Shown: positions 8,591-56,985 of the stretch, piece by piece
Layout of the letters: the number at the start of each line of letters is the position of its first letter
Position numbering within the stretch: position 1 is the first letter of the stretch
Assembly (NCBI RefSeq): GCF_008831285.2
Contig: NC_045138.2
Span: forward strand, 4,712,001 to 4,776,000
Source of the DNA: Nymphaea colorata
Taxonomy: Eukaryota
Direction of reading: 5' to 3'
DNA: 64,000 nucleotides
Position numbers and translations under genes: made by a program
Notes under the pieces: generated by a model
Database searches by the model: none
What the model was told of the DNA's origin: nothing
The model's input: only the letters and a program-made list of their open reading frames with translations

Positions 8591-9894
8591 AACAGAACAT
8601 AAAAATGAAGACATTTTTTTTTACTACTTAAAGGAGTGTATTTGTTATGACGATATGTATAGACAGACTGACAAATTTTACTTTTATCAAATCCTCAAAT
8701 ATTTTTTTTATAGTTTCTTTGTTTTATCCCAACAAAAATTTTCTTTTTGTTTTAATCATTGGCTTTTTTCATACTTAATATGACACACGAAAGCAGTGTA
8801 TATAACCAGCTTCGCAAACCCACCCCTCATCCCTCTTTTCTTTCTTTGTTCATCTTAAAAGAAATTTGAGATGTATTGCACACGTGAGAAGCTGGAGTAT
8901 GTAGACTTTGCAAAGCAAAATTAACCTCTGGTGGGATCATAAAAGTTTTTTTCGTTTTGTCAACCAATCTTTCTGTTTCTTTCTTTCCTAAGTTCAGCCA
9001 CTCAATATTTTGATCTTTTACGTTTATTTTTCATTCTAAAATGTCCATGGCGGTGGTTTAATGGTTCATTTTTATTGTTTTCCTTGTTTACTTTTCAATG
9101 AAAAACATGGTTAAGGTGTAGCTAGAGGTTGAGCACGAGCACCAGAAGGATAAAATTTTCCATTGTTTTAATTTTTGAAAGGTTTGATGATTCTCTAGTA
9201 TACATCTCCTTTTAGCTTTGTTCCTAAATCCTGGCGCAGTAGTCATTCTTTAGCAGCCTCAACTGTTGGCTACCCACGATCTCCATGGATGTATCTTGAT
9301 GGATAACAGAGTTTCCATTCTTTTTCCTCAGTTCCGTAGTCTATTCTCTCATCTGCACTAGATTCCAAGCACATAGTTTACTTTCTCTTCCCCAATTGTA
9401 GATGTTTCTGTAACTGACATGAATTTCCCATCAGCGAAAAAGACAATTCTATGTTAGTGATGATAAACTAGCACTAAGAGCTATTTAATTTTCTTTCCTA
9501 ACTTGTCAAAGGACGAAGCACCGGAACACCAAGCAAAGATCTTTCAATTTGGGACAGCTAGGGAAAAAAAAGCCTAGGGAGAGAGTGACCAGACCTGTGA
9601 ACTGTGTTAAAAAGTATTTATGTAAAACTCTTAATGCGTTTACAAACAATAAATTTAATATAAATTGTGTTTTAATTCAAGTTATTTTTGTAAAGAATCG
9701 GTATTTTCTACTATCCAAATTTTGGTGTTACAAGAACTGCTCATTTTTGGATTACTAAAAAATATTACTAAAGTAAAAAAAAAAAACTTAATATATTTTT
9801 CTCAACAAATCATGATTCTTAGGATCATATCTATAAAGTCAAATTGCAGAAATGCTTCAATAATTAGTTTTAATGGGTCTAAGTTTTATCCCTT

Positions 9895-11270
9895 ACCCCA
9901 AATGGTATGGTTTTTACCAAGTTCTCTTCTTGATACTCTTGAGCCCTACTCCCCCTTCAAGAATGGGCTTACAAATCCTGGCCCAGGAGACATGGTGCAC
10001 AAGTCTGGCATCTGAGGATTCATCCTAGAGGAACGCAGCCATAGTGGAGTTCAATTAGTTGACAAGAGCAGCATGAATGTAAAAGAACACAACTCCAAAA
10101 CTGTATAACATGGCTCAAAACGTTCTTTATAAGACTCAAATCTTCCAGCGAGAGAGAGTTTCTCGATCATCCAATGGGACAATTTCTTTGTTACCTTTGT
10201 CCAGCGGCGGTGAGCATAAATCAAAGCTTAGGCTACCCGTGAATAGAGGAAGGTCTAAATACGTGGTGGAACGGAGAATGATGCTCCAACCTCTGATCAC
10301 TAGAGGGTCCTGGAAATAACCCTGAGTTCCCTGCAGTCTAACAATGGAGTTCTTGGCGTGCCATCCTCTGATTATCACGCGGAGAAAAGCGGTGTTGTGG
10401 TCATTCTCTCACATCCAATTTATTCTGGCGTTCTGCCTCCAAGAGCTTTCCTCTTCCAGGAAGGTCGGCTGGAGCTCTTTCCTAAGAGTAATCAGTCAAC
10501 TGTTCGCTCCCGACGAGCCATGTTCCACCTTGGACTGGGCCACATCAAGGGCAGCCAGCTTTAAGACTTGCAATCCTAGTGCCAGTGCCATTCGGTGTGA
10601 TACGGTTGCGGGGAAACGGGTGCGGACACGGTACATGGTAATTTTCACAATTGTGAGAGCGGACACGGCAAATATTATATTCTAAAAAATGATAAAAAAG
10701 AACATTAAAAATCATAAAAGATGCCAAAAACATATAAGCAAAGAATCTCATGTTGGTCTAAGTTGTAAACAGAATTTGGAATTATAAACACCTGCCGTGT
10801 CCGGGTGCCCGGATCGCCATATTGACACGCCGACACGGGTACTCGGCTTATTTTGAAGTGTCCGTGTCACATAGGCCATGAGTGTTGAGCGCATTCTGCT
10901 AGTGAGAGAGTTCAGCCTTGACGATTTCAAGATGTTTGCACCAAACGAATCCCCAGGCACCCAAACAGAGGGTTGCGCCAAACCTTCTCCACCAGCTGAC
11001 CACATTCGGCTCGAGAAGACCAGTGCCTGAAATACCGAAACAAGCCGGCTCTGTGGCCGTGATGGGTGGGGCGGCTCACCTTGAGAACAAGAAAAAGGGA
11101 TCCAAAATTGATGAGTGGAAATTACTTAACCGCATGATGAGCAAGGTCCCAGGCTCCCACGATGCGAGCTATGCTTGCACAGCAGGATGCATTGGTAAGC
11201 GCCTTATATCTCCCGAGAGAAGAGAGCCACTGGAGGGATCTGATTTCCTCGATTTTGGTGTCTAGAATGA
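9895..11270 (-). mobile_element. Degenerate L1-type LINE ORF2 fragment, RT core deleted
   Basis: Motifs in LINE order: LFRYFRHW..ECGQLVEKVW (post-endonuclease), EEESSWRQNARINWM*ENDHNTAFL, TTYLDLPLFTG and VSWARICKPILEGGVGLKSI, with stops and frameshifts. The 3' part is repeated at about 35150-35410. Confidence 0.8.
10583..10876. mobile_element. Probable MITE nested in the LINE fragment (ends approximate)
   Basis: Interrupts the LINE reading frame; cggacacg/cgtgtccg motifs in inverted arrangement around an AT-rich core. A similar partial copy lies at about 12195-12530. TSD not resolved. Confidence 0.5.
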
Positions 11271-13189: not shown

Positions 13190-13831
13190 TGCATTCTTAA
13201 CAACATAAATCGAAAAAAAAGGTTTTTGAAAAGTTTTGATAAGCATCAGAGGTGTTGCGCTTTGGTCGTGGCCTTCTTGAAATCTAAAGATTTTGGTTCA
13301 AGAAAAGTACAAGTATAAAAACTAGGGAGAGAGAGAGAGGGGGGGGTAAAAGAAAAGATAGAGAGATGAGATTTTAAAAAAAGAGAGAGGGATTAAAGAG
13401 AGAGAGAGGTTAAAGAGAGATTAAGAGAGGTTAAAGAGAGATTAAGAGAGGTTAAAAAGGAAAGCGGGATAGAAAGAGAGCTTTTAAAAATAGAGGGTGA
13501 GAGAAATTTTAAAAGGAGAAAGAAAGAAGAAGAGAGAGAGAGAGATTAAATGAGAGATTTTGAGTTCGAAATTCTCTTTCCTCAATAGAAACTAAGAATG
13601 ACAAGTTCGACTTTAAATCAGTTTCAAAAGAGTTTCAAGCAACTACAAAAGATTTTGGAGACTTAGCCTAAACATTTTTTTTTTATGAGCCTAAATTCCT
13701 CTCTAGCTTACATCAAATGTGAAGAAGTCATAATATTTAAATTATTTTTCAAACTTGTTATTCTTAGTTTCTATTGAGGAAAGAGAATTTCCAACTCAAA
13801 ATCTCTGTTTTAATCTCTTTCTCTCTATCCA

Positions 13832-13870
<39 letters not shown>

Positions 13871-13922
13871 AAAAGCTCTCTTTCTATCTCCCTTTTCTTT
13901 TACCTCTCTTAATCTCTCTTTA

Positions 13923-13984
<62 letters not shown>

Positions 13985-14200
13985 TAAATCTCTTCTCTCT
14001 GTCTTTTCTTTACCTCTTGCTCACTCTCTCTAGATTTTAAACTCGTCTTTGTCTTGAACCAAATTTTTTAGATTTCAAGAAGGCCAAGATACTGCAACGC
14101 CCATTATGCTTATCATTGAGACCATACTTGCACGGCCTACAACCTCAAAACTTTTCAAAAACTTTTTTGTTTTTTTCGATTTATGTTGTTAGAATGGCAT
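13190..14200. mobile_element. Long-TIR fold-back (Mutator-like MITE-type) element; arms about 13190-13607 and 13752-14200
   Basis: Arms are imperfect reverse complements, e.g. ggccttcttgaaatctaaa/tttagatttcaagaaggcc and ctctttcctcaatagaaactaagaat/attcttagtttctattgaggaaagag; the (GA)-rich tract is mirrored by a (CT)-rich tract. Confidence 0.7.
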
Positions 14201-16037
14201 CCTTTCCTTTCAACTATATAAAATTCTTTTTCTTTTCATTTAACATGCATATTCACTATGTACTTATAGTATTCATGAATGCCAAAACTACTTCTCTAAA
14301 AACCGAAGCAAAACATTAAAAATAAGGTGGTAACTGAATTAGGGGCAAAATATTGAGATTACTTGAGTTTCAAAAGAATACACTAGCCACTAAACCAAAT
14401 TAAAGTGTTTTGATAAAATGTTATTAAGATCTTGTTTCAAAAATTGACTTTGTTTTTCACTTTTAAATGCTTATACCAAATGAAAATGATTCTTAATTAT
14501 GATTACTTCTTCTAAAATATCTTTCCGACCAATTTATCAAAAAGATTATGGAACTCTTTTTCCCAAGGACTTACAAAACAGTTTCTACTTTAAGGATTGG
14601 CTGTTTCATCATTTCTTCAAATTATAAAAAGTTAAATTTCTAAAAAACATTAAACTTCTTACCATGCACCGCAACACATTTAAGTAGAGGATAATGCTTA
14701 ATTGGACGTGGAAATACACCAAGAATGAACATAACCTTTGACTTTGTTACCCCCGATCACTACAAGAATGATAACATATACCAGCATACAGAGCCTATTT
14801 ATAAGTAGTCACCGTTTCTCTCACGCATGCCGAGAGGTGCGTTAGACAATGGGCCTTCTTTAATGCAACAGTAGCATTCGTTAGAGAAGCTAACCTTTAA
14901 CATCACAGCACCTTCCCTCCTATTATCACGAAAAGAAAGTTGATTCAATGGGTCCGCACCCTCCACTATTCATCAGAGAAATATGGTACTCGTGAAACAC
15001 TTTATATAAACTGTAAGGATTTACACATATGTGCTTTTCTGCTTTCTAGCTCGGCTGCTGTATCATAACATCTATTTTTAGGTCCAAGTGCCCAAGTTTA
15101 AGAGAGAATTTGAATCTTAACTGAGAGTGGGTTTACACAAGTTAGTAGTCAGAGTGCAAACGGGTTGGAGTTGCAGCCAAAGTTTGGCAATATGTCCCTG
15201 TATCAACATGGAATTAGCAGGGCTTTTATTTATATAGATACTTATTTGCTTTCAAGTCAACTAGACTCTGCTCACAATTAAGCACAATGCTTGGTTAGTT
15301 AATCCTTGTGATTATGTATATTTTTACAAATGAACGTCTTTTACTGCAAAACAAAAAACAAAAAAGGCTAATGACATCAGATGGCAAAACAATACTCAGG
15401 AAACGCTCTCCACTTTACCAGTTCTTCAGTTACTGTTAAACTTATAAGGAGTTATCCAAGACCATGTCAGCACTTGGCAACCTAAACAGCAAAAAGTTAA
15501 CAGTAAAGTAAGATCGCTGCCATGGTATTATCTACCATAAGCACCTTTTCGACCATGAGTTCCTTGTTTTGAATCTTTTGTTAGTGATGAACAAAAATCT
15601 GGTAAAAAAATCAAGGTTTCAGATAAACCAGGTTTAGTGAAGGTTCAAAAACATTGTTTTTTTTCATGCTTTTAATTACCAACAACGTAAAACAAAGAAA
15701 CAAAGAAAAGGTCCATCTGCTTCGTGAAATGAGGGGCAAGGAAATGCTTGGACTTGAAACAGAAAGAGAACAGACAAAAAAAATTTACAACTTCCCAGTC
15801 ACCCATCAGCCGCTGAGCTGGAAGAGGTCAAACCACATGGTGGGCAAAGCCAATTATCTTAAAAAACAAAGGAAATGCACATAAGACCCAAAGACCTACC
15901 TAGCCAGTTAAGTGGGCATGAATCACGGTCCAAAAAACTAGATGACCGACTTGATGGTGACTGTGTAAACTAGGTTGGCTTGTTACTAAGTTGGTAAAAA
16001 GGATTCAACTAACCATATTTTAAGCATTTCATTTTAG

Positions 16038-16590
16038 CCCAAAACACTAAGTTGGTAAATTCTGTTGGCTTGTTATTCTCCCTCATGACATATGTAAAAA
16101 AATGACAATGCATCCTCCACAAAGCCAAGCCTTGCAAAACTTGAAATGATGGAATTAAAAATAGCTATATCTCTGAGGCATTTCCTCAAAGAATTGAATA
16201 GAATCCTCCAATCTATTGAATTTGACAAACATGTCAATAATCGAGCTACATACAACAGATTTGGAGAGAAAACCTGTCTTTATGCAGACCCCAAAAATCT
16301 CATTTCCCGCTGTTGTATCTAGTAAATTTGCACATGCAACAACCATGGTAGAAATACTAAAGTGGTCATGGATGAACCCAATGGCTCCCATCCTCTGATA
16401 ATGGGTTAACGCTTGCTCAGGTTTTCCTGATCTAACACAGGCATACATAATGGCATTCCAGGACACTACATCCCATTTTTCCATACCATAAAACAAATGA
16501 AATGCATAGCTGACATTACTAAACCTACCATACATACAAATAAGGGCATTGTTAAGTATAAGATTATCATGGAGACAGTTCCTCAAAATG
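16038..16590 (-). pseudogene. Truncated, frameshifted copy of the PPR gene at 37519-39812
   Basis: Near-identical to 38384-38938 (ILRNCLHDNLILNNALICMYGRF...FEEMPQR). Has a 2-bp deletion (ctatatctctgagg vs ctatatctctttgagg), lacks the 5' end beyond 16590, and has lost about 970 bp of 3' CDS/UTR. Confidence 0.93.
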
Positions 16591-18611
16591 AGCGAGGCAG
16601 GCAGGAGATGCTTTTCTCTCATGCCTTTCTTCGTTCATGGCTGATTCACGCAGGTCCAAACCTGCGCTGGCTCATTTTTCCTTTACTAGATCGCGGCTCT
16701 TTGGGGGGAGTGTACATCTGTTTGAAACATTTCCGACTCTTATGTTAAATGAGTCCAGTTCGAGATTAAATGATTACTCAAGTTTGGCAATGAGTCGAGT
16801 TCGAGTCGGATGAACTCGACTCGATTAAACTTTTTTAACACTAATACTTATTTATGTAATTTCAAAAACATAAAATGGCTTAAATAAAAATGTGAAAATT
16901 TTAAGCATAAAATATATATTAAGAAACACGAGCTTAAACAAGTTGAGCTCAATCTTGAATTCAGTTAAGCAAGCCACACTCAAGTCGAGCTGTATATGAG
17001 TCGAGTCGAGTTTGAGCAGGTCCAGCTCGAGCTCGGCTTGCTTGTTGTGGGTTGGCAATCAATTTGAGATTTGGTTAATCGGGTTTCACACGCTTTTGTA
17101 GGCCAATGGGCTAGTTGCTGATTCGAGTGGCATGGGTGTCAGCACCACAGGAAATGGGCCAATGGTTGGTTGCTGGTTCGAATGGCTCGGGTGACAAGCT
17201 CGGTGGAAGAGCAATGTATTATCACACTTGCAGCACAGGTTCTAATGCAGGCACCAACTTAGCCAAGCGATCGAAAAGAGAAATTTAATTAATCAGGTGT
17301 TGCTAAAAGAAGACGAAGAAGCGTTGTAGCTGAGAACTTTACACCCCTAATTTCCTTGGTGGTCCTATGGATATAAAGGGCTTCCTAGTGCACCGTCAGG
17401 TGGTAGTTTGTTGTTTTATTTTAAAAAAATAAAACAACAAATAACGAAAATAAAAAAATGGAAACAATCAGTTTGTTATTACAAAAAAATGTCACAAAAC
17501 ATGAAATACCGGTGGGCGAAAATTTGTGTACCAGTATCACAGTATGCCACATATAACCATGTTTGCAAGGCTTGCAATTGTAGCACCAAAGACTGGGTTG
17601 AAATGATTTTGTTGTTTCCTATATTTAATGACTGGATTATTTGCCTATAACTATGACCGCTAAATATAAGGATAGAAATGAAGGTCCAAACAAAGCCTAA
17701 GATAGCTAATCAAATAGAGTGGTTAAGGTCTCAAGGGTGGTGCCACCCAATGGGTTTTTTGGCCTTCTCTTTTTCACCATGTTTGAATGGATGGAAACTT
17801 AAGGAAATGATTAATGGATGGAAGGGACAAGAAAGAAAAATCAATTGAAACAAAATTGGTAGGGAAAGAAAAGAAAAGGAGAAGAAAAAGAAAAATATTA
17901 TTGTAAAAGCTTGTTTGGATATAAAAGAAAGGAAAAGAAATCATTTAAATTAATTTACAAGAATGCTCTTAACACTTGAACTTATTATCTAAGTAAAAAT
18001 ATTTGATTACATGACCTGATTCAACAGTGGTACATGTTTATTTCTTAAAAGAAGAAAATATTGTACTTAACTTAATTTTTTATTTAATAGAAAATAATCA
18101 AATTAAATATTTTTTATGGTACTTAGCTAGAAATTCATGGGTTCTTTCTTATGCTTAATTTTTTAACATTATTTTAAATTTGAAAAAAATAATTTTTAGA
18201 GATCGATAGCTTTAAATGTGGAAAAAAATATATTCATGTTTTTCTATATCCTTATCATTGAGCAGGACCTAATTTTTCTGTAAGGCCCCATTTGATGCAC
18301 ATGAAAAATCCTGTGCATCCGGTGAAAAATGTACGATGAGGGGAAATTTACCTTGTGAGTGGTGTGTGCATCAACCACCACAAAACTTCACCAGGCAAAA
18401 TGTGTACGACGAGGGTAAAATTGACCCGCAAAAAAGTCCGACCTCAAAGCTCAGACTTTTTGCCTCGTTTTCTTCCTCTTTCCCCTCCATCGCCTTTTCC
18501 CCTCTCCTCTCTTGGTCTCTCGTTCCTCTCCACTCTCGTCTCCTCTCTCGCTCTCTCTTTCCTCTCCTCTCTCGCTCTCTCCTTCCACTCCTCCCTTGCT
18601 CTCTCGTGTCT

Positions 18612-18865
18612 CATAGTCAGCAGTTGATCGATTCGTCCCCATTTCTCAGTGATGTGGCGGTACCAGTCGGTGGCACGGGGATTGCCATGGCGATTGTTTG
18701 GTTCATCATGCCAAGGATACTGCAGAGACTCCACCACTATTCCTTTCGTGGGTGTGCTTCATTGTTGTCTATGAAGGTCAAAGAGGTCCCTTACGAGAAA
18801 AGTTTCTGGGGCATCTTAGAAGACCCTGTCAGATATCTTGTTACCTTCGCGGCGTTCACACAACT
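18612..18865 (+). pseudogene. Captured fragment of an MscS-like mechanosensitive channel gene (MSL1-like)
   Basis: QQLIDSSPFLSDVAVPVGG...WFIMPRILQRLHHY...EVPYEKSFWGILEDPVRYLVTFAAFTQ matches the recalled plant MSL1 motif VPYEKSFWGALEDPARYLVTF. Ends at a GT (18866) followed by intron-like sequence. Confidence 0.8.
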
Positions 18866-20654
18866 GTGACTCTTTTTCCCTTTCAATTTCCCTGAATTGT
18901 CCATCAAGTTTGAAATCAGAAATTTAGTACAGTAGCATGACCATACAAATTGGGAACTAGGTTATCCAGTTGTTTCAGTTTGCAATTGACTCTGATACTG
19001 GGGTGATTTAATTTGGTCTATGAAGTCAATTCCCCAGGAAAGTGTATGAAGTTTTTATTCACAATGCTAGGTTCACCAGGGTTGATTTGGTTCCTGGGAA
19101 ATGATTTGTTTCGGTTATGTTTTACGATTTGCCAAGTGAATTTGAAATGAACCTTGTGCACAACTGTGAATTCTAGTTTGTTTGATTGGTTCTATTCAAT
19201 TACAATGGCTACTTTGATTGCAAAATTGCGCTAGTTTCTTTCCTAATCACCCAATTAGGAATCCTAACGAGTGTCTTGTTATATTGCTTGTTTTTCTTTC
19301 ATACCCAACGGTGGAAGAAATATATCCCTTGTGACAAACCAAATAATAACATTCGATGTTTATATAAATCATATTTTCCAAAACATTTTCAAAGGAAACC
19401 TTATAATGCGGCCTTAGAGACATAGCTTAGACTCTTGCATGAGTCTAAGCTCCCCTCCGGCCCACATCAAACTCGAAGTTGGTAATTTTAAGTTATTTCT
19501 TCATTTCTAATCTTGTGAATGCACGTTTGTATATACATGTTACATACATATATGCGTCCATGATGATCTCCCTCATCTTTCTTTCTCTCTATGCTTTCAC
19601 TTTCCATTTTACAAATTTTTGCATGTGCATGAATGCATATGTACATGTGCTTTATTTCCTCTCTTTTGAATATTGTATTCCTTTTTTCAAGACAAATATC
19701 TTTCCATACAATATTTTTTATACATATCAATATATGTGTATGTATATTTTTCTTTCCCTCTCAAACCTCTCTTTCTCTTCAAATGCCTATTTTTCTCTTA
19801 AACTTTCATATATGTGTATGTGTCATAATATGTACACGTATATGCATGTCTTTCTCAATCTCTATCTGTTTCTTTTTATGATAATGTTTTATCTATTGTA
19901 TTCTTTTTTAACATTTTCCTTTCATGATGTTTTTATTTACCGACTTCACTAAGACCACAAACCAAGTAATGACTCAATATTGAAATCATGCTTGATGATC
20001 TACAACCCCAATCCCTTTTCAAAAACTTTTCATTCTTATATGCAATAATTATGAAAACAAGAATCTTAGATGTATGTTATGGTATGAATACATTTAGATG
20101 AATGTCATGGTAGGAATGCCTTATTATCTTTTAATCATGTAAGATCAACGTATTCATGCATTCACATTCACTTAATATCACAAATGAGCACAATCACATC
20201 TCTAAAAGAGCTTAAGCAAGATGAGATGAAATTCTAACTAGGTGGTAACCGAATCAGAGCAAAATCTCAAACCTATTCAAAGTCTTAAGAGAACACTAAA
20301 ATGATTTTAAAATGATTTTTCAAGCTTTCCAAATGATATTCATAAGGATTTCCTTCTAGTTTCCCAAAATATTTCACATTCTCAAGCAACTATTCAAGAA
20401 TCTTTTCAAAAGTTTGAAACAACGAACTTTCAATATTTTTCTACATCGCATATAGAATCAATGATAAACATAGCCCTTGGGTTGATTACCCCCAGTAAAG
20501 GCACCAGAAACAGTCGATCCTCGTACCAATGGACGAGTCCCTTTCTTTCATATTTCAAAACAAAACCTCATTTTTTTGTGAAGTACTCCAAAACCAATGA
20601 AATTTTGGAATGCAAACAGATATAAAGAGAGGTAGTATAAAACATGTGCAGCAT

Positions 20655-20760
20655 TAGAGTGTTGCAATAATAACAGCGAAAACATTCTGGATGCCAAAGT
20701 GCTCCCATGCAATTCAAGAAGCGGTGATGACCTATTTCATTGTTGCAACCAACACATAAC
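20655..20760 (-). pseudogene. Captured LIM-domain exon of a DA1/DAR-family gene
   Basis: LCVGCNNEIGHHRFLNCMGALWHPECFRCYYCNTL resembles the DA1 LIM motif CAGCNxEIGHGRFLxCxxxxWHPECFRC; preceded by a splice acceptor ctctctacag at 20761-20770 (minus strand). Confidence 0.85.
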
Positions 20761-23700
20761 CTGTAGAGAGGGACACAGAGATGTCTAAAATGTGGCATTG
20801 TCATGGAATAGAGATTCCACATCAGTGATGAGTACATATGCATATGATTGATTGGAGTAAATGGATACAACAGCACTGAATGTTCACATTGCAATGCTAT
20901 TCTAAGAATCAAGATCAAACAGGTCCGCAGCAGAAACAGAGTATAGTTCATGCTAGCAGGAACAATGGATAGGATTACCGCGTTTAGAGGGGATGGAATC
21001 TTCTCACAAAGATGACATAGTGGAAAATGAAAGAAGTCGGCAAAGAAGCTTCTTTGGGGAATCAATGGTGAGGACTTAGAGAGAGACGGAGCGAGAGAAG
21101 TTGGGAGTTTAATAAAAATACAAAATAAACTTATCATCATCTCTGGAAGATCGACAGGATGATTTGTGCCTCCTCTTCTTGCCATCCTTCCCGTTCTGCT
21201 TCGTCAGACTGCATAAGAGAACTAGAAAATTAGAGATGGAGGATTTCCAGAGAGGAACAAAGACTTTCGTCAAACAAATGAGATGTTCCCAGAAATTTTT
21301 TTTCCGGAAACGCCTTCAACAGTTAAAAATATATTTCTGCATTTGATAAACCAGAAATATTTAAAAAAAATTAAAATATATTTCCCTAGTAGATACAGGA
21401 AATTTTCAGCCCATCAAATGGGCCCTTATGGAACGTTTGGTAATCTTGCATTTGAGATCACTAGAATCTCAGATTCATGAATTTAAGGACAGATCTCATC
21501 CCATTCAACCTCTAATCCGATGTTTTTGCCATAAGTGCCTGGGAAACAAACCCTCTTTTTTCACATAGTAGTAAAATCCAGTGTTTGTTTCCACTGTGCA
21601 TCCCACGTAAAAGGGATCTTAGCCAGATCAGCTTTGGAATTGAAATATGAGGTTAATTGTCAAACACACTCTTAGTGTTTGAAGATGAAAGACATGAACC
21701 AAAGGAACTAGGTGCTAGATATGTAAAAAATATCGAACCATGCATGTGTGGAGGTTAGCATCCCCTGTACACTTGGACAGATTTTGGGTTTGGTTGGGGC
21801 AGTGGACTGTTGGCTGCTTTATTTTTCATTGAACTTTTTGTAATTGTTTAAGCAAATTGAACCTTTAATGGGTTCCTTACATTGTATTGGTAATATGCAT
21901 TGCTGACCCAAAGTAGAATAATAGGTTCTTTACTCAAACTAGCCGGACGTTTGATGTGCATTCAGTGGTGTCTTGTTTTTTTATTGCTCGTTTGAAAGAA
22001 AACCTTTATATGTCTGTGAATTCTATATGTGTTGTTTCGCTTAAAATAGAGGTTTATGCCGTGTGTGAATTTCTATTCCATAAATTGATCCTTCTCCCAC
22101 TGATTTAAATCAACAATTATGAATATATGATGCAATTCTCAAATTTTTTATATAAATAATTTTAAATCATTGTTAGTAATCAAATATCTATGTTTGAAAT
22201 TTAAAATTTCAAATATGATCTCTTGAATTTTTCAAGTATGTCTTGGAGATGAAAATGGAGAGTGTTATGCAAATGATTTAACGTTATAAAAAAAAATATT
22301 TTCAATAAAAGAAACATTATTATTGTTAAAGACAATGTGGCGACTTATAAGATAAAAACATCTATAAAAGCAAAGATGTACTAAAAATAATAATAACATT
22401 GTTATCAATAAGAGTGGTCATCCACCTGATTTTGCAAAAAAAATCAAGTTACTTGACCTTATTGTAAACTAAGAGTATAAATGTCAAATCTAACAATATT
22501 GATGTTACTCAAAGCAACTAACATTTTTGCTCAACAATAGAAATGTTATTATTCTTGACAATAGTTTTGCAACCTATAAGGAATTGATATCTATAAAAAT
22601 AAAGAAACCAACAAATATAATAATTACATCGCTATCAACAAAAAAATTTGATGACGCACAGTTGTAATAAAAATCAAAGATATGCCTAGAGATTATTGCC
22701 TAGAGATTACTGCAAATAAAGACTTCTCCCAACTTTTCTTCAGGCAGTCCTACTTAGAGTAAAGGACCCTTCTCTCTCTCTTGGCTATCCAACCGGATGA
22801 TTACCTCCAAAGCGGGTTATCCTTTCTTCTTCTTTTTTATAGTGGCAATCCATGAGTTGCACATCCAGTAGTTTCTAAGGGCGTCGTAATCATCGACACC
22901 AGAGGTATTCATGTTCTCAGATATTGTGCACCCCTTGTTTTTTGAATTGCATCATTACAGTTCTTTGAAGAACTGGATGATTTCTTTTGGGTATCATCTT
23001 ACATTAGAATTTAATTATCAGGTACTTAAATGTGATTTTTTTTCTTGATAAACATAGCCTGCCTTATTACAAGTAATTAAAAAAATAAACAAAATCGTTT
23101 CAACCTTAGTCATGTTAACCTTTTATTGTATTTTTTCCCCCTTCTTCTTTAAGATAGGGAGGTCAATCTCCTAGCAGCTTGCATGTAGATGGATGATTGA
23201 GAGAAAAATAAGAAGAAAGATGTATGAACTAATAGTATATTACCAAAATACCTATCTTCTTTTTTGTTAATCATCCATCATGATGGCTCTAGTTTCTAGA
23301 GTCACCATGGCAAATGAAACTGTTTAGAGTTCAGCGGCAGTCGTTATGCTATGCATTTGCAAATCTTTCTCTTTCTTTTTCCTTGTTAAGCACACGAGTA
23401 CTGCATATGCTGAGAGGGGTGAAGCGTGGGAGGGAGGAGCATATGCGACGCTGTTGGATTTGGTTGCACAGCAGATGTTCTCTTCATATATACTTCTGTT
23501 TCTAAAACTTTTAGTTGATGGATTTATCCTTAGAGGTCACATTTTCAACAGATAATACGGTAACTTCAAGTCGATCCTTACAAAATTATGAGAGCCTCAC
23601 CGACCCAAAGCAAGATTTATTCATTAAATAACGCTTCAATTTTTATATGCCTCCTTAACCTTAAAACATCTGGATGGTATGTGTTAGCTTGACATTCAGG

Positions 23701-24543
23701 TGAAGTTGAAAATAATCCTGATCTGGTTTAGTGCCTTTGTCCATGTCGAGTGCACTAGGTTTGATTCTGGGCTTTTTTTGAATCGGACTGACTCAGATAC
23801 ATTTGCAACCAAAGTTTCAGGTGCTTTAGTTGGTCGAATCCTTTTATTTTTCATATGTTCTCATTCATGGGATACCAAATTTAAACTTTCTTTCACGTAG
23901 CACCATCAATGTACTTTAAATGGATCTCTTTTTTTGGATTTTTTCTTTACCAAAAAGTTAGTTTGATTGAGTGAAGCATAGTCAGTTGAACCAGCAAACC
24001 GATGAAAATCTTGTTGCCAATTCAATCCCATGGAGACTACTCATCTGAATTGCAAACAGTAAATGTAGATATTCTAGTTGATATTTCACTCCAAGTTCAA
24101 TGCTGCCGTGTGCGAAATGTTAAAATTTAAGAATTTATTGTTAAAAAATAATTATCAGATATGTATTACCCATTATTTATGATGCAGTGACCGTTTATAG
24201 TGACTTTAATAACGATTTATTTTAAATTTTATCCATCCGGCAACTACATGGCATACAACCACTTCCAAAACCGGTCTACTTCCAAGGGTCCATTGTGATT
24301 GTGGTCTACAACTTGTTTTGCGTGGATCGTGAAGCGCTAATCTTATGCCTGTACTAGAAACATTCTGTTCCTACTCTTATGTGTTCTACCAGTCAATGGC
24401 TTCAATTTTCGCATCATTAGGTTTTTTCAATCACGCAATCAACAATATCACATAGGTCCGGATGCTATAAGAAAGTAAATTAAAAGGCTGCTCATGGTGA
24501 AAATAGTTGTTGAATTTCTGCTTTGATTGACAAAAATGGTCAG

Positions 24544-24636
24544 GTCAAAATCGAGTGCATAGTGGCGAGTGGAGGTGCAAGGGACGTGATTTGTGAAACG
24601 GTGGACAAGCTTGGTGCTGACATCTTGATCGTGGGT
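24544..24636 (+). pseudogene. Isolated exon of a universal stress protein A (USP)-like gene
   Basis: After cag|: VKIECIVASGGARDVICETVDKLGADILIVG, resembling the plant USP motif GDARDVICEAVDKLGADLLVMG. The following SHGYG motif is absent and no intact partner exons were seen. Confidence 0.7.
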
Positions 24637-24753
24637 GACAAGAAAAGGGCTCGTTCAGTTCAAACTGCAGCCTTTTTTGAACTGAATTAGTCTTCCCCCT
24701 TGCTCTTGTGCTGCGTGAGAGGTCTTGCGGCAACTCTTCCTTCCAGCTTGCAG

Positions 24754-26229: not shown

Positions 26230-26254
26230 GGGCCCGTTTGATGGGCGGGTGAAA
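26230..26254 (+). repeat. Left TIR of the Harbinger element
   Basis: gggcccgtttgatgggcgggtgaaa, preceded by TAA. Confidence 0.95.
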
Positions 26255-26469
26255 GTGGGCGGGGGAGGAAAAATTTGTACGGGCGGGTGAAATTTCACCC
26301 GCCCGGTTGAGTAGCCATCAAACGGGGTGGAATTCCACCCGTTTAACCGAAGAGGGAGCGGGTGGAATTCCACCCGCTCGAAAGTCCAAGCTCGGAATAT
26401 ACCCATCATGCTATTCTGCTGCAGCGCTCGAAGTCCCTCCGCAACGCTCGACCTCCCTCCGCAACTCCT

Positions 26470-26567
26470 CCTCCCTCGTGCCTTCTCACTGCCAGGTCTC
26501 ATCGTCGACCGTCGCAAGACCCTCAAGCGGCCGGCGTCGGAGGTTTTTCTGCCGGTATATCTCTCTG

Positions 26568-26615
<48 letters not shown>

Positions 26616-26921
26616 CGTCGCTAGCTGCCCACATTTCCCCCCTTTCTTCCGCACATTTCCCCCCTTTCTCTGTGCTGGGTAGCACCCTCAAATGCCCCCA
26701 TTTTTTCCCCCCTCAAACGCCCCCATTTTTTTCCTCCCTCGTGCCTTCTCACTGCCAGGGTTTCACCGTCGACTGTCGCAACACCCTCAAGCGGCCGGCG
26801 TCGGACATTTTTCTGCCGGTATATCTCTCTGTCGCTCTCTCTCTCTCTCTCTCCCCGTCGCTAGCTGCCCACATTTCCCCCTTTCTTCCGCACATTTCCC
26901 CCCTTTCTCTGTGCTGGGTAG
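26470..26921 (+). repeat. Direct duplication (about 200 bp; 26470-26682 and 26733-26921) in the GC-rich 5' region of the Harbinger
   Basis: Both copies run cctccctcgtgccttctcactgccagg...ccctcaagcggccggcgtcgga...(CT)n...tgtgctgggtag. Confidence 0.9.
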
Positions 26922-28632
26922 TTCCCTCAGACGCCATAATCTTCACTCCTCCATTTCCGCTTTTTGTATCTTTGATTTATGTGGTTCTTTTGTTTTTTTT
27001 TATTTAATTTCATGTTTTGTTTCTCTTGTTGGGTGTTCACATTTCTTATCGTTCTTATTTGCGGCAGTCTGTGTAAACGAGCAGCTAAGTAATAGAAGCA
27101 TTGTAGTTATCCTTATCGTTCTTGAACGATGAGCTAATGCTATATGTTATGTTTCACATCTTCCTGGGTGTTTTTGTTTCTTTAAGTTACTTTTTATGGT
27201 TATTTGCGAAACAAAACCTTGTTTCTTTCGAGGGAATTTTATCTTGCTAAAGCAGATGATCGCCTACAGATTCCCCTGTAGGAGTTATATGAATTGAGCT
27301 CCATGTATTGAAAACAAGCTTTTGGTGGAGGCATAGAAATGGTTGCCTTAACCTTATCTCGTTATCAGTATCGCCGTTCTTTTCTCTGAGTTTCATTATG
27401 TTATCCCTTAGGGCATTTGGGCCCTTAGATAGAAACGGGGCTTAGATTTCAGCGACGCAAGTTGCCTGTACAGGGACCTATCTGACAATAAGAGAAGAAT
27501 CTATTTTTCTCATTTGCCTGTACAGGGACCTGTCTTGCCTTCTCAAGTTCTTTTGTGAAAGACCAACAGTAAGAGTACCACAGTGCCTTATAACTTAAAA
27601 CCTGCAAAAAAGAACAGGGCCTAGCTCTCTGTATCTACGGGAGAGTGAATTTCTTTCGAATTAGTTCCTAGTAGAACTGTTGTATCCTTTTCCATTTTTA
27701 TTCTCTTTCCTTTACCAATTGTCATTGTCTTGGCCAAGTGTATGATAGAAGGGAACATGAATGTCTAAGGGTGCTTTTAACTTTTAAGTAGTGCATAACA
27801 ATCACCGTGTAGATTCTTCCTGTTTCTAGGATGTTGGTTTTCTTCAACTTATATCGGAGGCTTGCAGAAGCAAAATGGGCTGCATGAGATGGAGAAAGAT
27901 GCCTGAATTAATAGGCAGTTTGTTCATAAATAACGTTGTTCACGCCTCCGGTGTCTAATTGTTCTATTCTCAGTTATTGTTCTCTTATATGTTTTTCACA
28001 AAAGAAAAACATGTAATGATCTTTTCTATGGATGAAACATAATATATAGCATTAGCTCATCGTTCTCACAAAAACATTTATATTTCACTTTGTCTTTACA
28101 ACAAATAGAGCCATTGTTTGGAGCTTGTAGTGGTTAATCTTTTTCTTTTTGTATTTGACACAGATTCTCTCTATTGCAAGAATCAAGTTTTAACTTTTAT
28201 TGGATTTAGAGTGCGGTTTTCACTTGATTCCTATTGCAAAAATAGTTGCTATTCTTTTTGCATAAAGCTTGCATCAAATTTTGGCAACATTGCTAGGGAA
28301 CGACAAATTAAAATCCCAAATATTCAGTTTATTGCTGACATCTTTTGTACTTATCATGTGTTATTAGTTTGCTTTGGTTCTTGGAAACCCATTTTTTGCA
28401 CATATGGATTGTAAGATCATAATTGCGTAATTAGCATAGCTTGAGATGAATTTCCTTTCTTTTCTGTGTATGAAAGGTCTACTTATGCTTTTAATTGGCA
28501 ATGGTGGAAACTTTATGTCATGCTTTTTCTTTTGGTTTTTGATGCTCCTTTGTCGTTGTTTCTCGTACAACTGTTCTTCATGCTAGATTTATATTATTGT
28601 TACTGTGAAGAATTATTATACAAAACGTTAAC

Positions 28633-29854
28633 ATGGAAGACAGCGGTCCTTCAAGAGAAAATCTTACGTGGACTGAACCACAAATGGATTACTTAGTCCA
28701 GCTTCTTGTGGAGCAGTCACGCATCCTTGGCATGAAATCTGGTGGAGGTTTGAAGCCCAAAGCATACACAGCTATTGAAAAAGCAATGATGGATAGATTC
28801 GGTCCAGAATTCACGAAAGACAAAATAAAAAACAAATTGAAGCATTCCAAACCCAACTTGACAGTGATGAAGGAAATGTTGAACACAAGTGGGTTTGGCT
28901 ACGACCCAATTAACAAATGCATTGAGGTCGACCCCCAAGTATGGAACGACTACATTGAGGTAAATTATAAAATTAATATTGTTAGGTTTTGTCTCACATG
29001 TATTTGCTTCTGCAATATTTGAACACATGAATTTTTTCAGAAATATCCGAATAGGAAAAAGTACAGAGGTCCAAAAGTTTGGAGATACTATGATGAGTTC
29101 GCCGAGGTATATGGCGAATCTCATGCAATTGGGCAAAACGCAGTCACATTAAACAACGTGCTTGAAGTTGAGACTGAACCACTCCCATGTACACCTGCAT
29201 CTCAGACATCACCTTCGTACATGCAGCCTGATAGTGAACAGTCATTTACACAGTCGCCACTACCTACAACTCCTACAACTGATTTGAACACATGAATTTT
29301 TTCAGAAATATCTAAATAGGAAAAAGTACAGAGGTCCAAAAGTCTGGAGATACTATGATGAGTTCGCCGAAGTATATGGCGAATCTCATGCAACTTGGCA
29401 AAACGCAGTCACATTAAACAACGTGCTTGAAGCTGAGACTGAACCACTCTCATGTACACCTGCATCTCAGACATCACCTTCGTACATGCAGCCTGATAGT
29501 GAACAGTCATTTACACAGTCGCCACTACCTACAACTCCTACAACTGAGAATCCGACAACCAATACAAGTACACGTAGGTCAAAACGGAACAAGTCAACCA
29601 ATGATGACATGTATTACAATTTGTTGAACGGTATAGCTAAAAATGTGGACTCCCTCACACATACTTCTAGAGGGTTTCAATATGTCAAATATTGTGAAAT
29701 TTTACAAGAGATGGTGGACACAGGGCTACTAGATAGTCATACGAGACTGATGAGTCTAGACCTGTTAGGAGAGGGAACCAATTCCATGATCTTTCTCAAC
29801 GTTCCACCTGAAGACTGGCTGACATGGTTGTCGCGTAGACTTGGTGATTTGTAG
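28633..29854 (+). CDS. Harbinger Myb/SANT-like DNA-binding protein; exon 1 28633-28959, exon 2 29306-29854 (291 aa); alternative acceptor at 29041 gives a 193-aa truncation
   Basis: MEDSGPSRENLTWTEPQMDYLVQLLVEQ...GGLKPKAY...IKNKLK...SGFGYDPINKCIEVDPQVWNDYIE|gtaaat; after tttcag| the frame continues KY.NRKKYRGPKVWRYYDEFAEVYGES, typical of plant Harbinger Myb/SANT proteins. Confidence 0.88.
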
Positions 29855-30095
29855 GTAAGATTCCATGTCTGTTAGTTTAATTATTTGTATGTTTCATTTG
29901 GCACAATAACATTTGTTGTGTGTTTTTCTTTTTATTCCATGAACATCCATGTAGTGAGAAATTGTTGCAATGTATTTGCAGTTTAGTCGAAATGATTGAT
30001 TTCGTTATTCAAGTACCTTACATGTATATGCAGTTTAGTCGAAATAATTGATTTTGTTATTCAAGTACCTTACATGTATATGCAGTTTAGTCGAA

Positions 30096-31494
30096 ATGAT
30101 TGATTTTGACATGTTCGATGACGACGATGAACGAGTGCTTTTCATCATTCGAATGGTTTTTGTCTTCATTTTCTTTTGGTTGAAAGACCAACCATCATCT
30201 AGGAGGATTGTTCATCCATTTCGAGATGCTGGTACATCTTTTGTCCAACTAATGCTTCGCGGTCATCCTAAAAATTGTTTGGACTTACTCCGTATGGAAG
30301 GACATACATATATGAGACTGTGTAACATTCTAAGGAATAGAAATTTGTTGGAGGATGCTCGTGACATTACTGTAGAAGAACAAGTAGCTATATTGCTTTT
30401 GACAATTGGACATAATGAACGGAATCGTGCTGTTCAAAATACGTTTCAACATTCCGGACAAACAATAAGTAAATATGTCAGCCTAGTGCTACGAGCGATA
30501 TGTATACTGGGTAAGGATTACGTTCGTCGGCCCAATGATGAGATGATACCAGCACATATTCGACATTCTAAACGATTCTTTCCATATTTTGAGGTGATTT
30601 CATCATCTTGAACTCAACATGACATATACAACATGACAAACTACAACATGACTAACTAGTTGTCTTGTCATATAGAATTGTTTAGGAGCAATCGATGGCA
30701 CACATATACCGGCTTGGGTCCCTTTTTCAGATCAAGCAAGGTTTCGTAATAGAAAAGGTTTCGTTTCTCAAAACGTCATGGCTGTAGTCGGCCTTGATAC
30801 TAGATTCCACTACGTTTTGGCTGGATGAGAAGGAAGTGCAACAGACTCAGGAGTATTGTACAATGCACTAGATCATGAAACAGACCCATTTGTTGTCCCA
30901 GAAGGTACGTAGTTCCACCAACCAGTTCAGTCTTTTATTAAGAAGCATGTATCAATGTATAAATACATTGTGTTCAATTGTAGGCAAATTTTACCAAACA
31001 TTGTTGGTTTGCTTATACCTTATCGAGGACATCGTTATCATATGTCTGAGTTTAACACTCGGGGAGCACGTTCACCTAGAACAGAAGAAGAATTATTCAA
31101 CCATAGGCATTCATCACTCCGAAATACAGTAGAAAGAACTTTCGGCATGTTGAAAGGTCGTTTTCCAATATTGAAAATGCAAGTTCAGTATCCTTTCCAA
31201 AAACAAGCTCAAATTGTTCTTGCTACATGTGTACTGCACAACTTCATAATTGAACACAATCCAAATGCCGAGCAATTTGATGATGAAGATGCACCTTCGA
31301 TTGATAATTTCGTCTTAAGCGAACCTGAAATTGCAAGCCAAACACATCAGCGAGGAAGCAACAATGCTTTGAGAGCAGCTATATCATCTCAAATGTTTAC
31401 AGATTATCAATTGAATAGTAAGTTTGTTTATAAATGTTGACTACTTCTTCAGTTTGATTGTCTGACATTTGTTTTCTTTTCAACAGGACAATGA
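30096..31494 (+). pseudogene. Harbinger DDE (HARBI1/DDE_Tnp_4-like) transposase, disabled; exons 30096-30593, 30676-30904, 30984-31417, 31487-31494
   Basis: Motifs LRME..YMRLC, VEEQVAILL.TIGHNERNR...FQHSGQTISK, CLGAIDGTHI, RNRKG..SQNVM, YVLAG*EGSA (TGA 30826-30828 replaces W), GKFY joined out of frame to PNIVGLLIPYRG (DxGY motif missing), FNHRHSSLRNTVERTFGMLKGRFPIL, ATCVLHNF. Confidence 0.92.
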
Positions 31495-31823
31495 AGATGA
31501 TGCTCCGCCAAAAGTACTATGTGGTTTTCGAAGGACGTGAGCGAGGCATATATGACAGCTGGGAGCGGTGCCAACCATTAGTCTATCGGTACAAGGGTGC
31601 CATCTTCAGATCGTTTGATTCATTACAAGTAGCAGAAAATCACATGCATAAGTATCTCCAGAACAAGTATGGTGTGCAAGTACGCAGGTCTCCACTCATT
31701 GAAGATGTCATCGCAAAGCAAGTTATAGAAGACACGCAGTTTGAAGAACGAAAGTGCAGCCAGAAATGTTGGATTACTTGTTTTGTGATTACATGTTTTC
31801 TTTGTTGGATATGTACTCATTGA
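31491..31823 (+). CDS. Harbinger ORF3: 110-aa protein with an RNase H1 N-terminal hybrid-binding (Cauli_VI-type) domain and a hydrophobic Cys-rich C-terminal tail
   Basis: KYYVVFEGRERGIYDSWERCQPLVYRYKGAIFRSFDSLQVAE fits the consensus YY.V..GR..GIY.SW..C...V..Y.GA.(F/Y)KSF.....A. No RNase H catalytic domain follows; tail CWITCFVITCFLCWICTH. ORF is intact and inside the TIRs. Confidence 0.82.
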   Translation: MKMMLRQKYYVVFEGRERGIYDSWERCQPLVYRYKGAIFRSFDSLQVAENHMHKYLQNKYGVQVRRSPLIEDVIAKQVIEDTQFEERKCSQKCWITCFVITCFLCWICTH

Positions 31824-32551
31824 ACTTTGTTTTTTCTTCTTAGTAGAAAGTACACCCTTTTGTGGATTCGTACTCATGTTACTTTTGTGGACAATTTTTG
31901 TTTAATGTTTTTGGGAACAAATATATAACTTTTGCAGTTGTAGATTAAGTTAAGAAGGTGTTTTCTGTTGTAATGTGTTGCTAGATATTTCTTTTTGCTT
32001 TTTGTTATATATATCGTGTGAATAGTCGTGTCTTTTAATGAACTGGCTGTATGGTGATTTGTTTTGGGATGATTGATGAAGAAATATATGGGTTCTGCAG
32101 TCCATTTTTTGTTTATTGGTTTTGGCTTGGTGGTGGTTCCATGAGATGATGATCTTTCTCGTTTGGTGGTGTGCTTGGGTAATCTGTACATATAAGAATC
32201 GGTGATGAGGTGATGATCTTTCTCGTTAGATGTTTCGGCTTCGAAACACAAGCTTTTGTGGCATTTATTTGAGTGGTGATCTTTTGTTGTTTTGTAAGTT
32301 AGCATTCCTACTCCTTTCAAAGTGCAATTGGGGAGGAAAAAAAAAACAACATTTTCCAGGTTAAATTTTCCCTGTGCATCAAACAGGGTTAAATTTACCA
32401 CGTTAAATTCTTCATGTTCATCAAACTGGGTTAAATTTACCACGTTAAATTTCACCCGACAATCAAACAGGGCCTCGTTTTAGAAGAGGGTAAAATTTCA
32501 TCCACTAAATTTTTCTAGAAAAATTTACCTTGGTAAACTTACCGCATTAAA

Positions 32552-32576
32552 TTTCACCCGCCCATCAAACGGGCCC
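32552..32576 (-). repeat. Right TIR of the Harbinger element
   Basis: tttcacccgcccatcaaacgggccc followed by TAA; exact reverse complement of the left TIR. Confidence 0.95.
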
Positions 32577-32701: not shown

Positions 32702-35427
32702 CGGCATTAGTTCAATTATTTTGGGTTGCTACTGTTAGGGACTGCAAAAGATGGATTCATGACAATTTAGTTGACACATATACTGCTTTACACTGAGAAT
32801 CGGGTTAAACGAAAAAAGGTAGAGGCTTAGCCTCTTCAAGGTCTTTGCATAAACTAAAGCAAAATGTACAATTGTGAAATGTCTCGCATCGATAGACCAT
32901 GGGTATTTGTATAAACTAAGCAAAAAAGATGCAGTTGTGAAATGTATTTATTCTATAGTATCCATCAGTAAAAAAGACAAAGTGACTAGAACATCATTTT
33001 CTTTACAATAGACCAAGGGTATTCGTACGAACTAAAGTTAAAAAGGCAGTTCCGGCGGGAATTTAATCTTTAATGTATCTGATTTTATTACGTAAAAACA
33101 ACTCGGATATATGACTTTGAATCCAAATTTATTTCGACCTTGGGTGGATTTTAGAGTCAAATTTAGACTCGGTTGTGAAGTACAAATTGAACCCACTAGC
33201 CAGATCCAAACCTTGTAATAATCTAAAGATTGACATAAAGTCATGCATTTGTGTGTGTGTGTGCGCTAAAGACAGTGGTGTAGATGACTTTGCAAATTGA
33301 TCAAATCAATTTATGAATGATAGGCTAAAGAACTAAAGATAAGGATCAAATTGCCGACCATTACAATGATTTCATGCACCGGCCCTTGGCTTCCACGCAC
33401 TTCTTTGGATTTCAGGCACCACTCTTCCTCTCATCTGCAGTAGAAAAATTCAGATTATCATTCTAGTAATCACCCCAAATTTTTCAAAAATCTATATCTA
33501 TCAATTTACAAGCATTTTATCATAAATTTACAACAAATTTCAAGTATTTTTCATCCTCAAACACTTCAATTTCTCCCAATTCAAATTAGTTTCTTCTTTT
33601 ATTTGATTATCAACTATATTTGAGACTTATTTGGCTCGGATTTCGGACTTTGCATGACAAACCTCAACCTCAATTTATGCTTATTTTACAATTTAATGTT
33701 GGATCCAGTCCAAAAACTTATACAAAAACCAAGACAAATCCTTAAATCTAAATCCGGATCCAAATCCTAGCTCCATTTCCAAAACAGAACACTAGATCAA
33801 AATCAAGATCTAAATCGCTGTTCCAAATCCAAAACAGATCAATAGACCCACATTCAGAACCGAATTCCAGCTCTACATTCAAAACAGATCCTTAGATCAA
33901 TATCCAGATCCAAATACAAATTCTAGCTCTAGATCCCAATTACAAGGCCAGGCTAGGTGTGAAAGATCTTTCTAACAATAGCAACAGAGCAAGATCAAGT
34001 GACACTAGCCAACAGAGCAAGGCTAGCTATTTGCTTTCATGTTGGCTTTCTTGATTTCATAAACAGAAGGCTGCAGTTGAGGGTTTAAAACGAGTGATGC
34101 AGGAAGAAAAATCCAACAATAACAAAAAAAATCGTTCTTCCATTAGAAAAACAAACATTATAGGCTAAGTGCATTCATGCAAGGGTATATAAGCTAAATA
34201 GAATGAATGGTATTAAAATGAAGACAAAGTCAATTTTTTTCTTTTCATTTTTGTCATACCATTGTCCACTTGCGTGTGGTTCAGCCTACCATCTTTGGAT
34301 GCCTCGTATTTTCTTTTCTTCTTAAAATCCCAATCAAAGAAATAAGAACAAATTGATAGTGGTCCCTTTCTTTTTTTTCAGACGATCATTCATTATTTTT
34401 ACTGATATTGGAGGTTAGCTTGATGATTCTCTATATACATCTCCTTTTAGCTTTGTTCCTGTCTTGGCACAGTACTCATTCTTTAGCTGCCTCAACTGTT
34501 GGCTTCCCACAATCTCCACGGACGCATCTTTATGGATGACAGAGTTTCCATTCTTTTTCCTTATTAGTTTCCTAGACTCTTCTCTCATCTGCACTAGATT
34601 CCAAGCACAGATTTTACTTTTTTGTTCGTATTTGTAAATGTTTCTGTAACTGACATGAATTTCCAATCAGCCAAAGAGACAGTTCTGTGTCAGTAATGAT
34701 AAACTAGCACTACGAGCTATTTATTTTTCTCTCCTAACTTGTCAAACGACAAAGCACTGGAACACCAGGGAAAGATCTTTCAATTTGGAGCAGCTAGGAA
34801 AAAAAAAAAAAAAGCCTAGGGAGAGAGACCAGACCTCTGAAATATGTGTTAACAAATATTTACGTAAAACTCCTAATGCGTTTACAAACAATAATTTAAT
34901 ATAAATTGAGCTTTAGTTCAAGTTATTTTTTGTAAAAGAATCGGTATTTCCTGCTATCCAAATTTTGGTGTTACAAGAACTGCTCATTTTTGGATTACTA
35001 AAACATATTACTAAAGTAAAAAAAAAAAAAGTAATTTAATATATTTTTCTCACCAAATCATGATTCTTAGGACCATATCTATAAAGTCAAATTGCAGAAA
35101 AATGCTTTAATAATTAGTTTTAATGGGTCTAAGTCTTATCCCTTACCCAAATGGTATGGTTTTTACCAACTTATCTCCAAGTTTTCCTCTTCGATACTCT
35201 TGAGCCCTAGTTCCCCTTCAAGAATGGGCTTACAAATCCTGGCCCAAGAAACATAGTGCACACGTCTAACATCTGAGGATTCACCCTAGAGGAACGCAGC
35301 CATAGTGGAGTTCAATTGGTTGACAACAGCAGAATGAATGTAAAAAACACAACTCCTAAACTGTATAACATGGCTCAAAACCTGCTTTATAAGACTCAAT
35401 CTTCCAGCGAAAGTGTCTTTTCTTTTA

Positions 35428-35467
<40 letters not shown>

Positions 35468-38400: not shown

Positions 38401-38938
38401 AGTAAATTCTGTTGGCTTGTTATTCTCCCTCATGGCATATGTAAAAAATGACAATGCATCCTCTACAAAGCCAAGCCTTGCAACACTTGAAATGATGGAA
38501 TTAAAAATAGCTATATCTCTTTGAGGCATTTCCTCAAATAATTGAATAGAATCCTCCAATCTATTGAATTTGGCAAACATGTCAATAATCGAGCTACATA
38601 CAACAGAATTGGAGAGAAAACCTGTCTTTATGCAGACCCCAAAAATCTCATTTCCCGCTATTGTATCTAGTAAATTTGCACATGCAACAACCATGGTAGA
38701 AATAGTAAATTGGTCATGAATGAACCCAATGGCTCTCATCCTCTGATAAAGGGTCAACGCTTGCTCAGGTTTTCCTGATCTAACACAGGCATACATAATG
38801 GCATTCCAGGACACTACATCCCATTTTTCCATACCATAAAACAAATGAAATGCATAGCTGACATTACTAAACCTACCATACATACAAATAAGGGCATTGT
38901 TAAGTATAAGATTATCGTGGAGACAGTTCCTCAAAATG
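32702..38938 (+). repeat. Segmental duplication, copy B (paralogue at 4800-16590)
   Basis: Same matching blocks as copy A. Lacks the equivalent of about 10150-14000 and overlaps the intact PPR gene. Confidence 0.9.
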
Positions 38939-46730: not shown

Positions 46731-46963
46731 ATCAAACAAAGAATTTTGATTCTTGAATTGTAAGCTCATTCTTGAATCAAAAATTCCAAAATGGTAAATC
46801 TTCTCTCAGGGGTAGAATTATGATTTTAGAATTTTAGAATTTTTTTCATCTCAATTCTAAAATTCTAAAATCATAATTCTACCCCTGAGAGAAGATTTAC
46901 CATTTTGGAATTTTTGATTCAAGAATGAGCTTACAATTCAAGAATCAAAATTCTTTGTTTGAT
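46731..46963. repeat. Near-perfect palindrome: 111-bp arms, 11-bp spacer
   Basis: 46731-46841 is the reverse complement of 46853-46963 except for two homopolymer-length differences. It sits within a Tourist-like region (gggggtgtttg at 46655 ... caaacaccctc at 47186). Confidence 0.93.

Positions 46964-53899: not shown

Positions 53900-56985
<3,086 letters not shown>

Follow-up and report, generated by a model that had tools for sequence, protein, structure and literature searches.

Did a single transposon carry pieces of two unrelated host genes into this site, or were its two ends brought together afterwards? We address this question at positions 18284–21425 of a window of 64,000 nucleotides from Nymphaea colorata (NC_045138.2, 4,712,001 to 4,776,000, forward strand), where an earlier note, made from the sequence alone, had described one Pack-Harbinger enclosing convergent MSL1-like and DA1-like fragments. 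Our findings favour, with moderate confidence, a composite remnant in which the left arm of one copy stands beside the right arm of another, likely from one non-autonomous Pack-PIF (Harbinger) family. The arms belong to, and work like, a Pack-PIF-type family; this assignment concerns the arms and not the locus as one mobile unit. The evidence from beyond the window consists of assembled DNA contigs from four runs, of which X1 and X2 share one sample (organism A), X3 stems from organism B, and X5 from organism D, and of raw reads from a single RNA run, also of organism A, 6/100 of which were compared with the right arm (20588–21500). Contig counts are those among the contigs listed, all of them as pieces shorter than 500 bp.

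The right end is followed by a TTA and the start of an older repeat (21426–21452, plus strand). Nineteen listed contigs (10 from X1, 4 from X3, and 5 from X5) start fitting exactly at 21426 and share one upstream consensus; thus, the right end entered the TTA of this older repeat. An 18-nucleotide piece of that consensus finds no counterpart in the window with up to three mismatches allowed, and the X1 depth at 18132–18275 is fully accounted for, leaving no room on the left for the repeat family of the right flank. Since the uninterrupted right flank differs from the left flank, the TAA and TTA that border the locus are two distinct target sites and not a damaged duplication, and the ends were not inserted together here. 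The insertion of one intact Pack-Harbinger, as first proposed, is contradicted, for the empty right flank and the left flank are not continuous. No target-site duplication surrounds the pair of ends (TAA on one side, TTA on the other) and, given that the flanks come from different sites, we do not file the locus as an intact element.

The Harbinger-type ends themselves are present as described. On the left, a TAA (18281–18283, plus strand) precedes a terminal inverted repeat (TIR; 18284–18314, plus strand) with a core of 14 bp, extending imperfectly to approximately 31 bp. On the right, the TIR (21395–21425, minus strand) is followed by TTA exactly where the older repeat breaks, and two X1 contigs carry this TIR and its TTA with other flanks. 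The two ends are identical at 13 of their first 14 bases and alike in 26 of 34 aligned columns; with the ends of a full-length PIF/Harbinger element at 26230–32576 they share 12–13 of the first 14 bases, in agreement with the short TIRs of the PIF type. Ends of this type preceded by TAA or TTA number four in the window, the other two being those of the full-length element, whereas 100 Markov-simulated sequences had 0.01 on average. The inverted pair at the locus spans 3142 bp, within the 300–15,000 bp range of Pack-PIFs. The left junction is crossed by one X3 contig (18210–18506, with 19 other letters and 16 gaps); thus, the left insertion is common to organism B, or else duplicated.

How close are these ends to the full-length element? 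The locus and the element share a TAA target, and further likeness is found in the left sub-terminal region (18315–18460, plus strand; local score 32, p=0.001, 1000 shuffles) and in a CT-rich tract (18470–18608, plus strand), which the element also has near its left end. The close relationship claimed in the earlier note thus stands for a core of 13–17 bp and one left sub-terminal motif, and the kinship goes no further. At positions 15–36 neither end resembles the full-length element (p=0.16–0.56), and blastn of the arms against it gave no match at E 1e-4. Unlike the locus, the element has a perfect TIR of 25 bp, a true TAA duplication, and Myb/SANT and DDE genes. The left and right ends of the locus are alike past the core, at the same positions 15–36 (p=0.039), and both have an A at position 7, which is absent from the full-length element.

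What do the arms carry? Near the left end, an open frame (18609–18865, plus strand) encodes residues 126–211 of MSL1, identical at 76 of 86 amino acids to MSL1 of N. thermarum and at 76 of 88 to that of N. colorata; the solved mitochondrial MSL1 is matched at E 1.5e-24. This piece begins within coding sequence at 18609, straight after the CT-rich tract, and ends at a splice donor behind 18865, followed by what is presumably MSL1 intron (18866–19229, plus strand). The donor reads GTGACT in the window; contigs of all four runs have a G at 18870, which gives the canonical GTGAGT, and a left-arm contig (18749–19229, depth 58.6) reaches 19229. A seeming splice acceptor at 18644–18650 was rejected, as the MSL1 homology continues across it. 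Near the right end, and on the minus strand, part of a DA1-like LIM exon (20662–20760, residues 158–191) is identical to the N. colorata DA1-like protein at 33 of 34 amino acids (Pfam LIM, E 2.5e-6). A splice acceptor, with its pyrimidine tract and CAG, and part of the DA1 intron (20761–20946, minus strand) precede it in reading direction, one X1 contig departing at 20946. Six listed contigs carry the DA1 exon on before 20662; thus, the window copy is cut, in mid-exon. Protein comparison bears out the MSL1 identity, and that of the DA1 exon is likewise upheld. The two pieces read inward, each retaining one splice boundary, which argues for capture from DNA. With these boundaries kept, the arms present in multiple copies, and both ends found at other sites, DNA-level gene capture by PIF/Harbinger-type arms is supported. 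The N. colorata records place the MSL1 and DA1-like donor proteins on two separate contigs (36.3 and 27.7 Mb). As in Pack-PIFs, the arms carry host coding DNA; no transposase was seen in them, the six-frame translations holding the MSL1 and DA1 pieces, chance frames, and no other long frame, and in a Pfam search of seven frames from the locus only LIM appeared at E <0.01.

The DA1 exon is not the only captured piece of the right arm. While MSL1 and DA1-like are confirmed as sources, the count of two host genes is likely too low, for three more pieces match transcribed loci: a third at 20958–21110 (right border approximate; RNA depth up to approximately 67, 65 reads departing before 20958), a fourth at 21130–21205 (53 reads departing before 21130 and 38 behind 21205), and a fifth at 21208–21283 (left border approximate; RNA depth approximately 18), all left without strand. 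DNA contigs depart at piece borders too, two from X1 at 21205 with the same letters as the RNA reads, and others at 21268 and 21283. The 228 RNA reads on 20588–21500, 221 of which fit partially and 4 of which are at least 99% alike, group into four distinct blocks (the DA1 exon, from 20958 to about 21110, 21130–21205, and from about 21208 to 21283), with zero depth over the DA1 intron at 20774–20897. They differ from the window at nearly fixed sites (58 of 58 reads at 21136; 19 of 19 at 21231), and those of the DA1 block, with loose ends at 20669 and 20712, are by hand translation mostly paralogue-derived. Since the reads stop at the piece borders, the blocks stem from separate transcripts elsewhere and not from the right arm itself; no transcript running along the arm was found in the organism A sample (6/100 of one run). 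As for the donors of pieces three to five, none of five candidates scored and 1.84 billion representatives gave no match, nor was there a usable Atlas match or a Pfam match above cut-off; these searches used short pieces and hand-chosen frames.

Between the arms lies a third component (19230–20661, without strand), which makes up 1432 of the 3142 bp. Its median depth in X1 is approximately 640 times that of locus-identical contigs, with 20619–20661 at single-locus depth in the same run. Repeat contigs diverge before 19226 (12 listed, X5) and behind 20666 (3 listed, X3), a left-arm contig reaches 19229, and the six DA1 contigs go on before 20662; thus, the middle piece is internal to a repeat at both joints, without target duplication. 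It overlaps the arms by 4–5 bp (19226–19229 and 20662–20666), and neither TG..CA termini nor a target duplication of 4–6 bp, the hallmarks of long terminal repeat retrotransposons, is found at its joints. No convincing coding frame and no Rfam family were found in it, and it is likely derived from a retrotransposon, a class suggested solely by its very high copy number and the absence of coding sequence. A match to the Rfam family mir-297 was rejected as sub-threshold (E 0.84).

The depth of the arms bears on whether they belong together. In X1 the median depth is 216 for the left arm and 231 for the right, against 22 for locus-identical contigs (n=4; two further ones, at depths 43.6 and 38.5, were excluded from this median). 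This corresponds to approximately 10 copies with a unit of 22 and approximately 5 with a unit of about 40, the captured DNA having been amplified with the ends. The ratio of left to right median depth is 0.93 in X1, 0.90 in X2, 0.89 in X3, and 0.99 in X5. A diverged relative of the left end occurs at another site, after other sequence, in one X5 contig. The earlier note had itself allowed that the ends might belong to independent elements, with no other copy or empty site linking them. One half of this proved right, as the empty form of the right flank contradicts joint insertion; the other half is less likely, the ends being probably not unrelated in view of arm depths that are nearly equal in four runs and of the left/right polarity.

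From these observations we suggest how the composite may have arisen. Pieces of host genes would have been copied from genomic DNA during break repair, and a PIF transposase acting in trans would have multiplied the arms to some 5–10 copies. Two copies of like orientation, inserted in a TAA and a TTA, respectively, may then have lost their inner ends, and their arms were likely brought together, through deletion or break repair, across the 1.4-kb piece of high-copy repeat, either as intervening or as filler DNA. What remains is an inverted pair of outer ends, which an intact transposase of the family could in principle move. We also entertain, tentatively and at less than even confidence, a more specific form of this reading, in which capture by neighbouring insertions has been halted midway and left a frozen intermediate: a Pack-PIF family with five donors would have had two of its copies fuse around intervening DNA, and these would not yet have co-transposed.

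Several observations weigh against the fusion of two related copies. The main gap is that in no copy are the MSL1 and DA1 arms joined by a listed contig, pieces under 500 bp being what was listed; a 17-nucleotide motif from the contigs in which the DA1 piece is longer does not occur in the window and brought no arm-to-arm link either. The likeness of the ends past the core (p=0.039) is one among ten tests, and the sub-terminal part of the right end matches neither end of the full-length element (p=0.39 and 0.86). Summed contig depth is not copy number, and the donor genes contribute to the depth of the arms; the runs are not independent, X1 and X2 being a single sample and organisms A, B, and D mutually related. 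The overlaps at the joints of the middle piece rest on organisms B and D rather than on the window's own sample. By eye, the upstream consensus of the right flank agrees with the end of the left flank at 9 of 10 letters within a T-rich stretch, a resemblance that we take as chance.

The alternatives differ in how they deal with this evidence. The arms might derive from two different Pack-PIF families, one with MSL1 and the other with DA1 and the three further pieces, brought together by deletion. Flanks from different sites, the lack of a listed arm-linking contig, and the absence of any similarity between the arms past position 33 (p=0.56) are all consistent with this, and the 26 of 34 columns alike between the ends hardly exceed the 25 of 35 between the right end and the full-length element. 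Yet arm depths that agree within 11% in all four runs, the A at position 7, and the correct left/right polarity speak against two families, and we consider that origin rather unlikely. A single Pack-PIF could instead have inserted at the TTA, its left end later re-joining a nearby TAA with deletion of the original left flank, and its interior being separately replaced by a retrotransposon remnant. Cut-and-paste transposases are known to produce such adjacent deletions. A single copy would account for the cognate ends, the equal arm depths, and the proper target trinucleotide beside either end, and the left-flank repeat is indeed cut, at approximately 18165, so that the left flank has been rearranged; more events are nonetheless required than for a fusion of two copies, and we regard this course as unlikely. 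That one intact Pack-Harbinger merely suffered a mutation in one base of a 3-bp target duplication is highly improbable, for although a single base separates TAA from TTA and many private differences mark the copy as old, the 19 listed contigs from three runs show a sequence other than the left flank before the empty right flank.

Fusion of two copies remains our preferred reading, and the question arises of what could mobilise them. The earlier note had pointed to the neighbouring family, of which the full-length element (26230–32576, plus strand) is the copy at hand, its frames matching Myb/SANT at E 1.6e-15 and DDE_Tnp_4 at E 7e-14. Its transposase is broken, with an in-frame TGA at 30826–30828 and a frame break near 30985–30995, so that this copy is unlikely to mobilise anything. 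We take the frame break to coincide with the expected catalytic-aspartate motif. A search of the PDB with the last transposase exon found nothing. Behind the transposase, a third open frame (31458–31823, plus strand) has an RNase H1 N-terminal (Cauli_VI) domain (E 1.7e-16), and our literature search found no report of a third RNase H frame in Harbingers. The element further contains a 265-bp tandem duplication (97%) within the Myb/SANT gene (29017–29546), three tandem copies of 52 bp at the start of the transposase (29970–30125), and a 33-bp inverted repeat (97%; 27124–27156 and 28033–28065) enclosing 876 bp of its 5' region, possibly a small nested element.

Additional Harbinger/Tourist-like ends with TTA or TAA occur at 17686–17700 (minus), 17904–17918 (plus), 47734–47748 (minus), and 59297–59311 (minus); matches to such ends number 8 in the window, with 1.27 expected. 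Elsewhere, an old local duplication (86–96%) relates 13978–16590 to 35419–38938 and 9184–10154 to 34420–35413, leaving at 16038–16590 a partial copy of the PPR-like gene at 37519–39471. Long self-inverted repeats, resembling foldback or miniature inverted-repeat elements, lie at 13237–14115 (75%, approximately 880 bp) and 46731–46963 (96%, 233 bp), and a direct duplication of approximately 1.1 kb (95% identity), with AT and GA microsatellites, at 53915–56985. The best protein matches come from Nymphaeaceae, which marks the host as a water lily. The window has open frames of plant type, presumably NB-LRR (320–3895) and PPR-like, and 24480–24650, between the two elements, holds by eye a coding piece that we assume to be universal-stress-protein-like.

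Gene capture by PIF/Harbinger elements, which the earlier note had called less often reported, has already been published. Pack-PIFs of maize and rice, including some that draw on two donor loci, are described together with a model of capture by neighbouring insertions (PMC8903248), and transduplication of exons and introns by PIF elements is described for grape (PMC2528002). Our arms resemble Zm-Pack-PIF cluster #18 and its relatives in their PIF-type ends, TTA/TAA targets, and lack of transposase, as well as in short host-gene pieces from more than one donor locus present in multiple copies, and the model of fusion between neighbouring copies predicts the layout seen here (PMC8903248). Unlike Zm-Pack-PIF, the locus has no target duplication and would fail the filter described there; it has up to five donor pieces instead of the two of cluster #18, and its host is an early-diverging angiosperm (PMC8903248). 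Similarly, elements of grapevine Pifvine-3 bear host exons and introns common to several copies; there, the pieces lie in the long 5' region of elements with PIF genes, whereas our arms are non-autonomous and stand in a composite locus (PMC2528002). In N. colorata, ovule siren loci are enriched in hAT elements and not in Harbingers, and thus lend no special support to a role of the arms in small interfering RNAs (10.64898/2026.08.14.744852). Our literature search, with subscription journals mostly outside its coverage, found no paper on a Nymphaea Pack-PIF.

Overall, our findings extend Pack-PIF gene capture from maize, rice, and grape to water lilies. Exon pieces from MSL1, DA1, and other sources, in some 5–10 copies, might confuse gene annotation, and the arm copies could yield putative small interfering RNAs against the donor genes. 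If two copies have indeed fused, the locus would be the step that precedes the movement of a new, larger Pack element; and if it is a frozen intermediate, the model of capture by neighbouring insertions could be tested on it directly, in an early-diverging angiosperm and with a family present in several related organisms.

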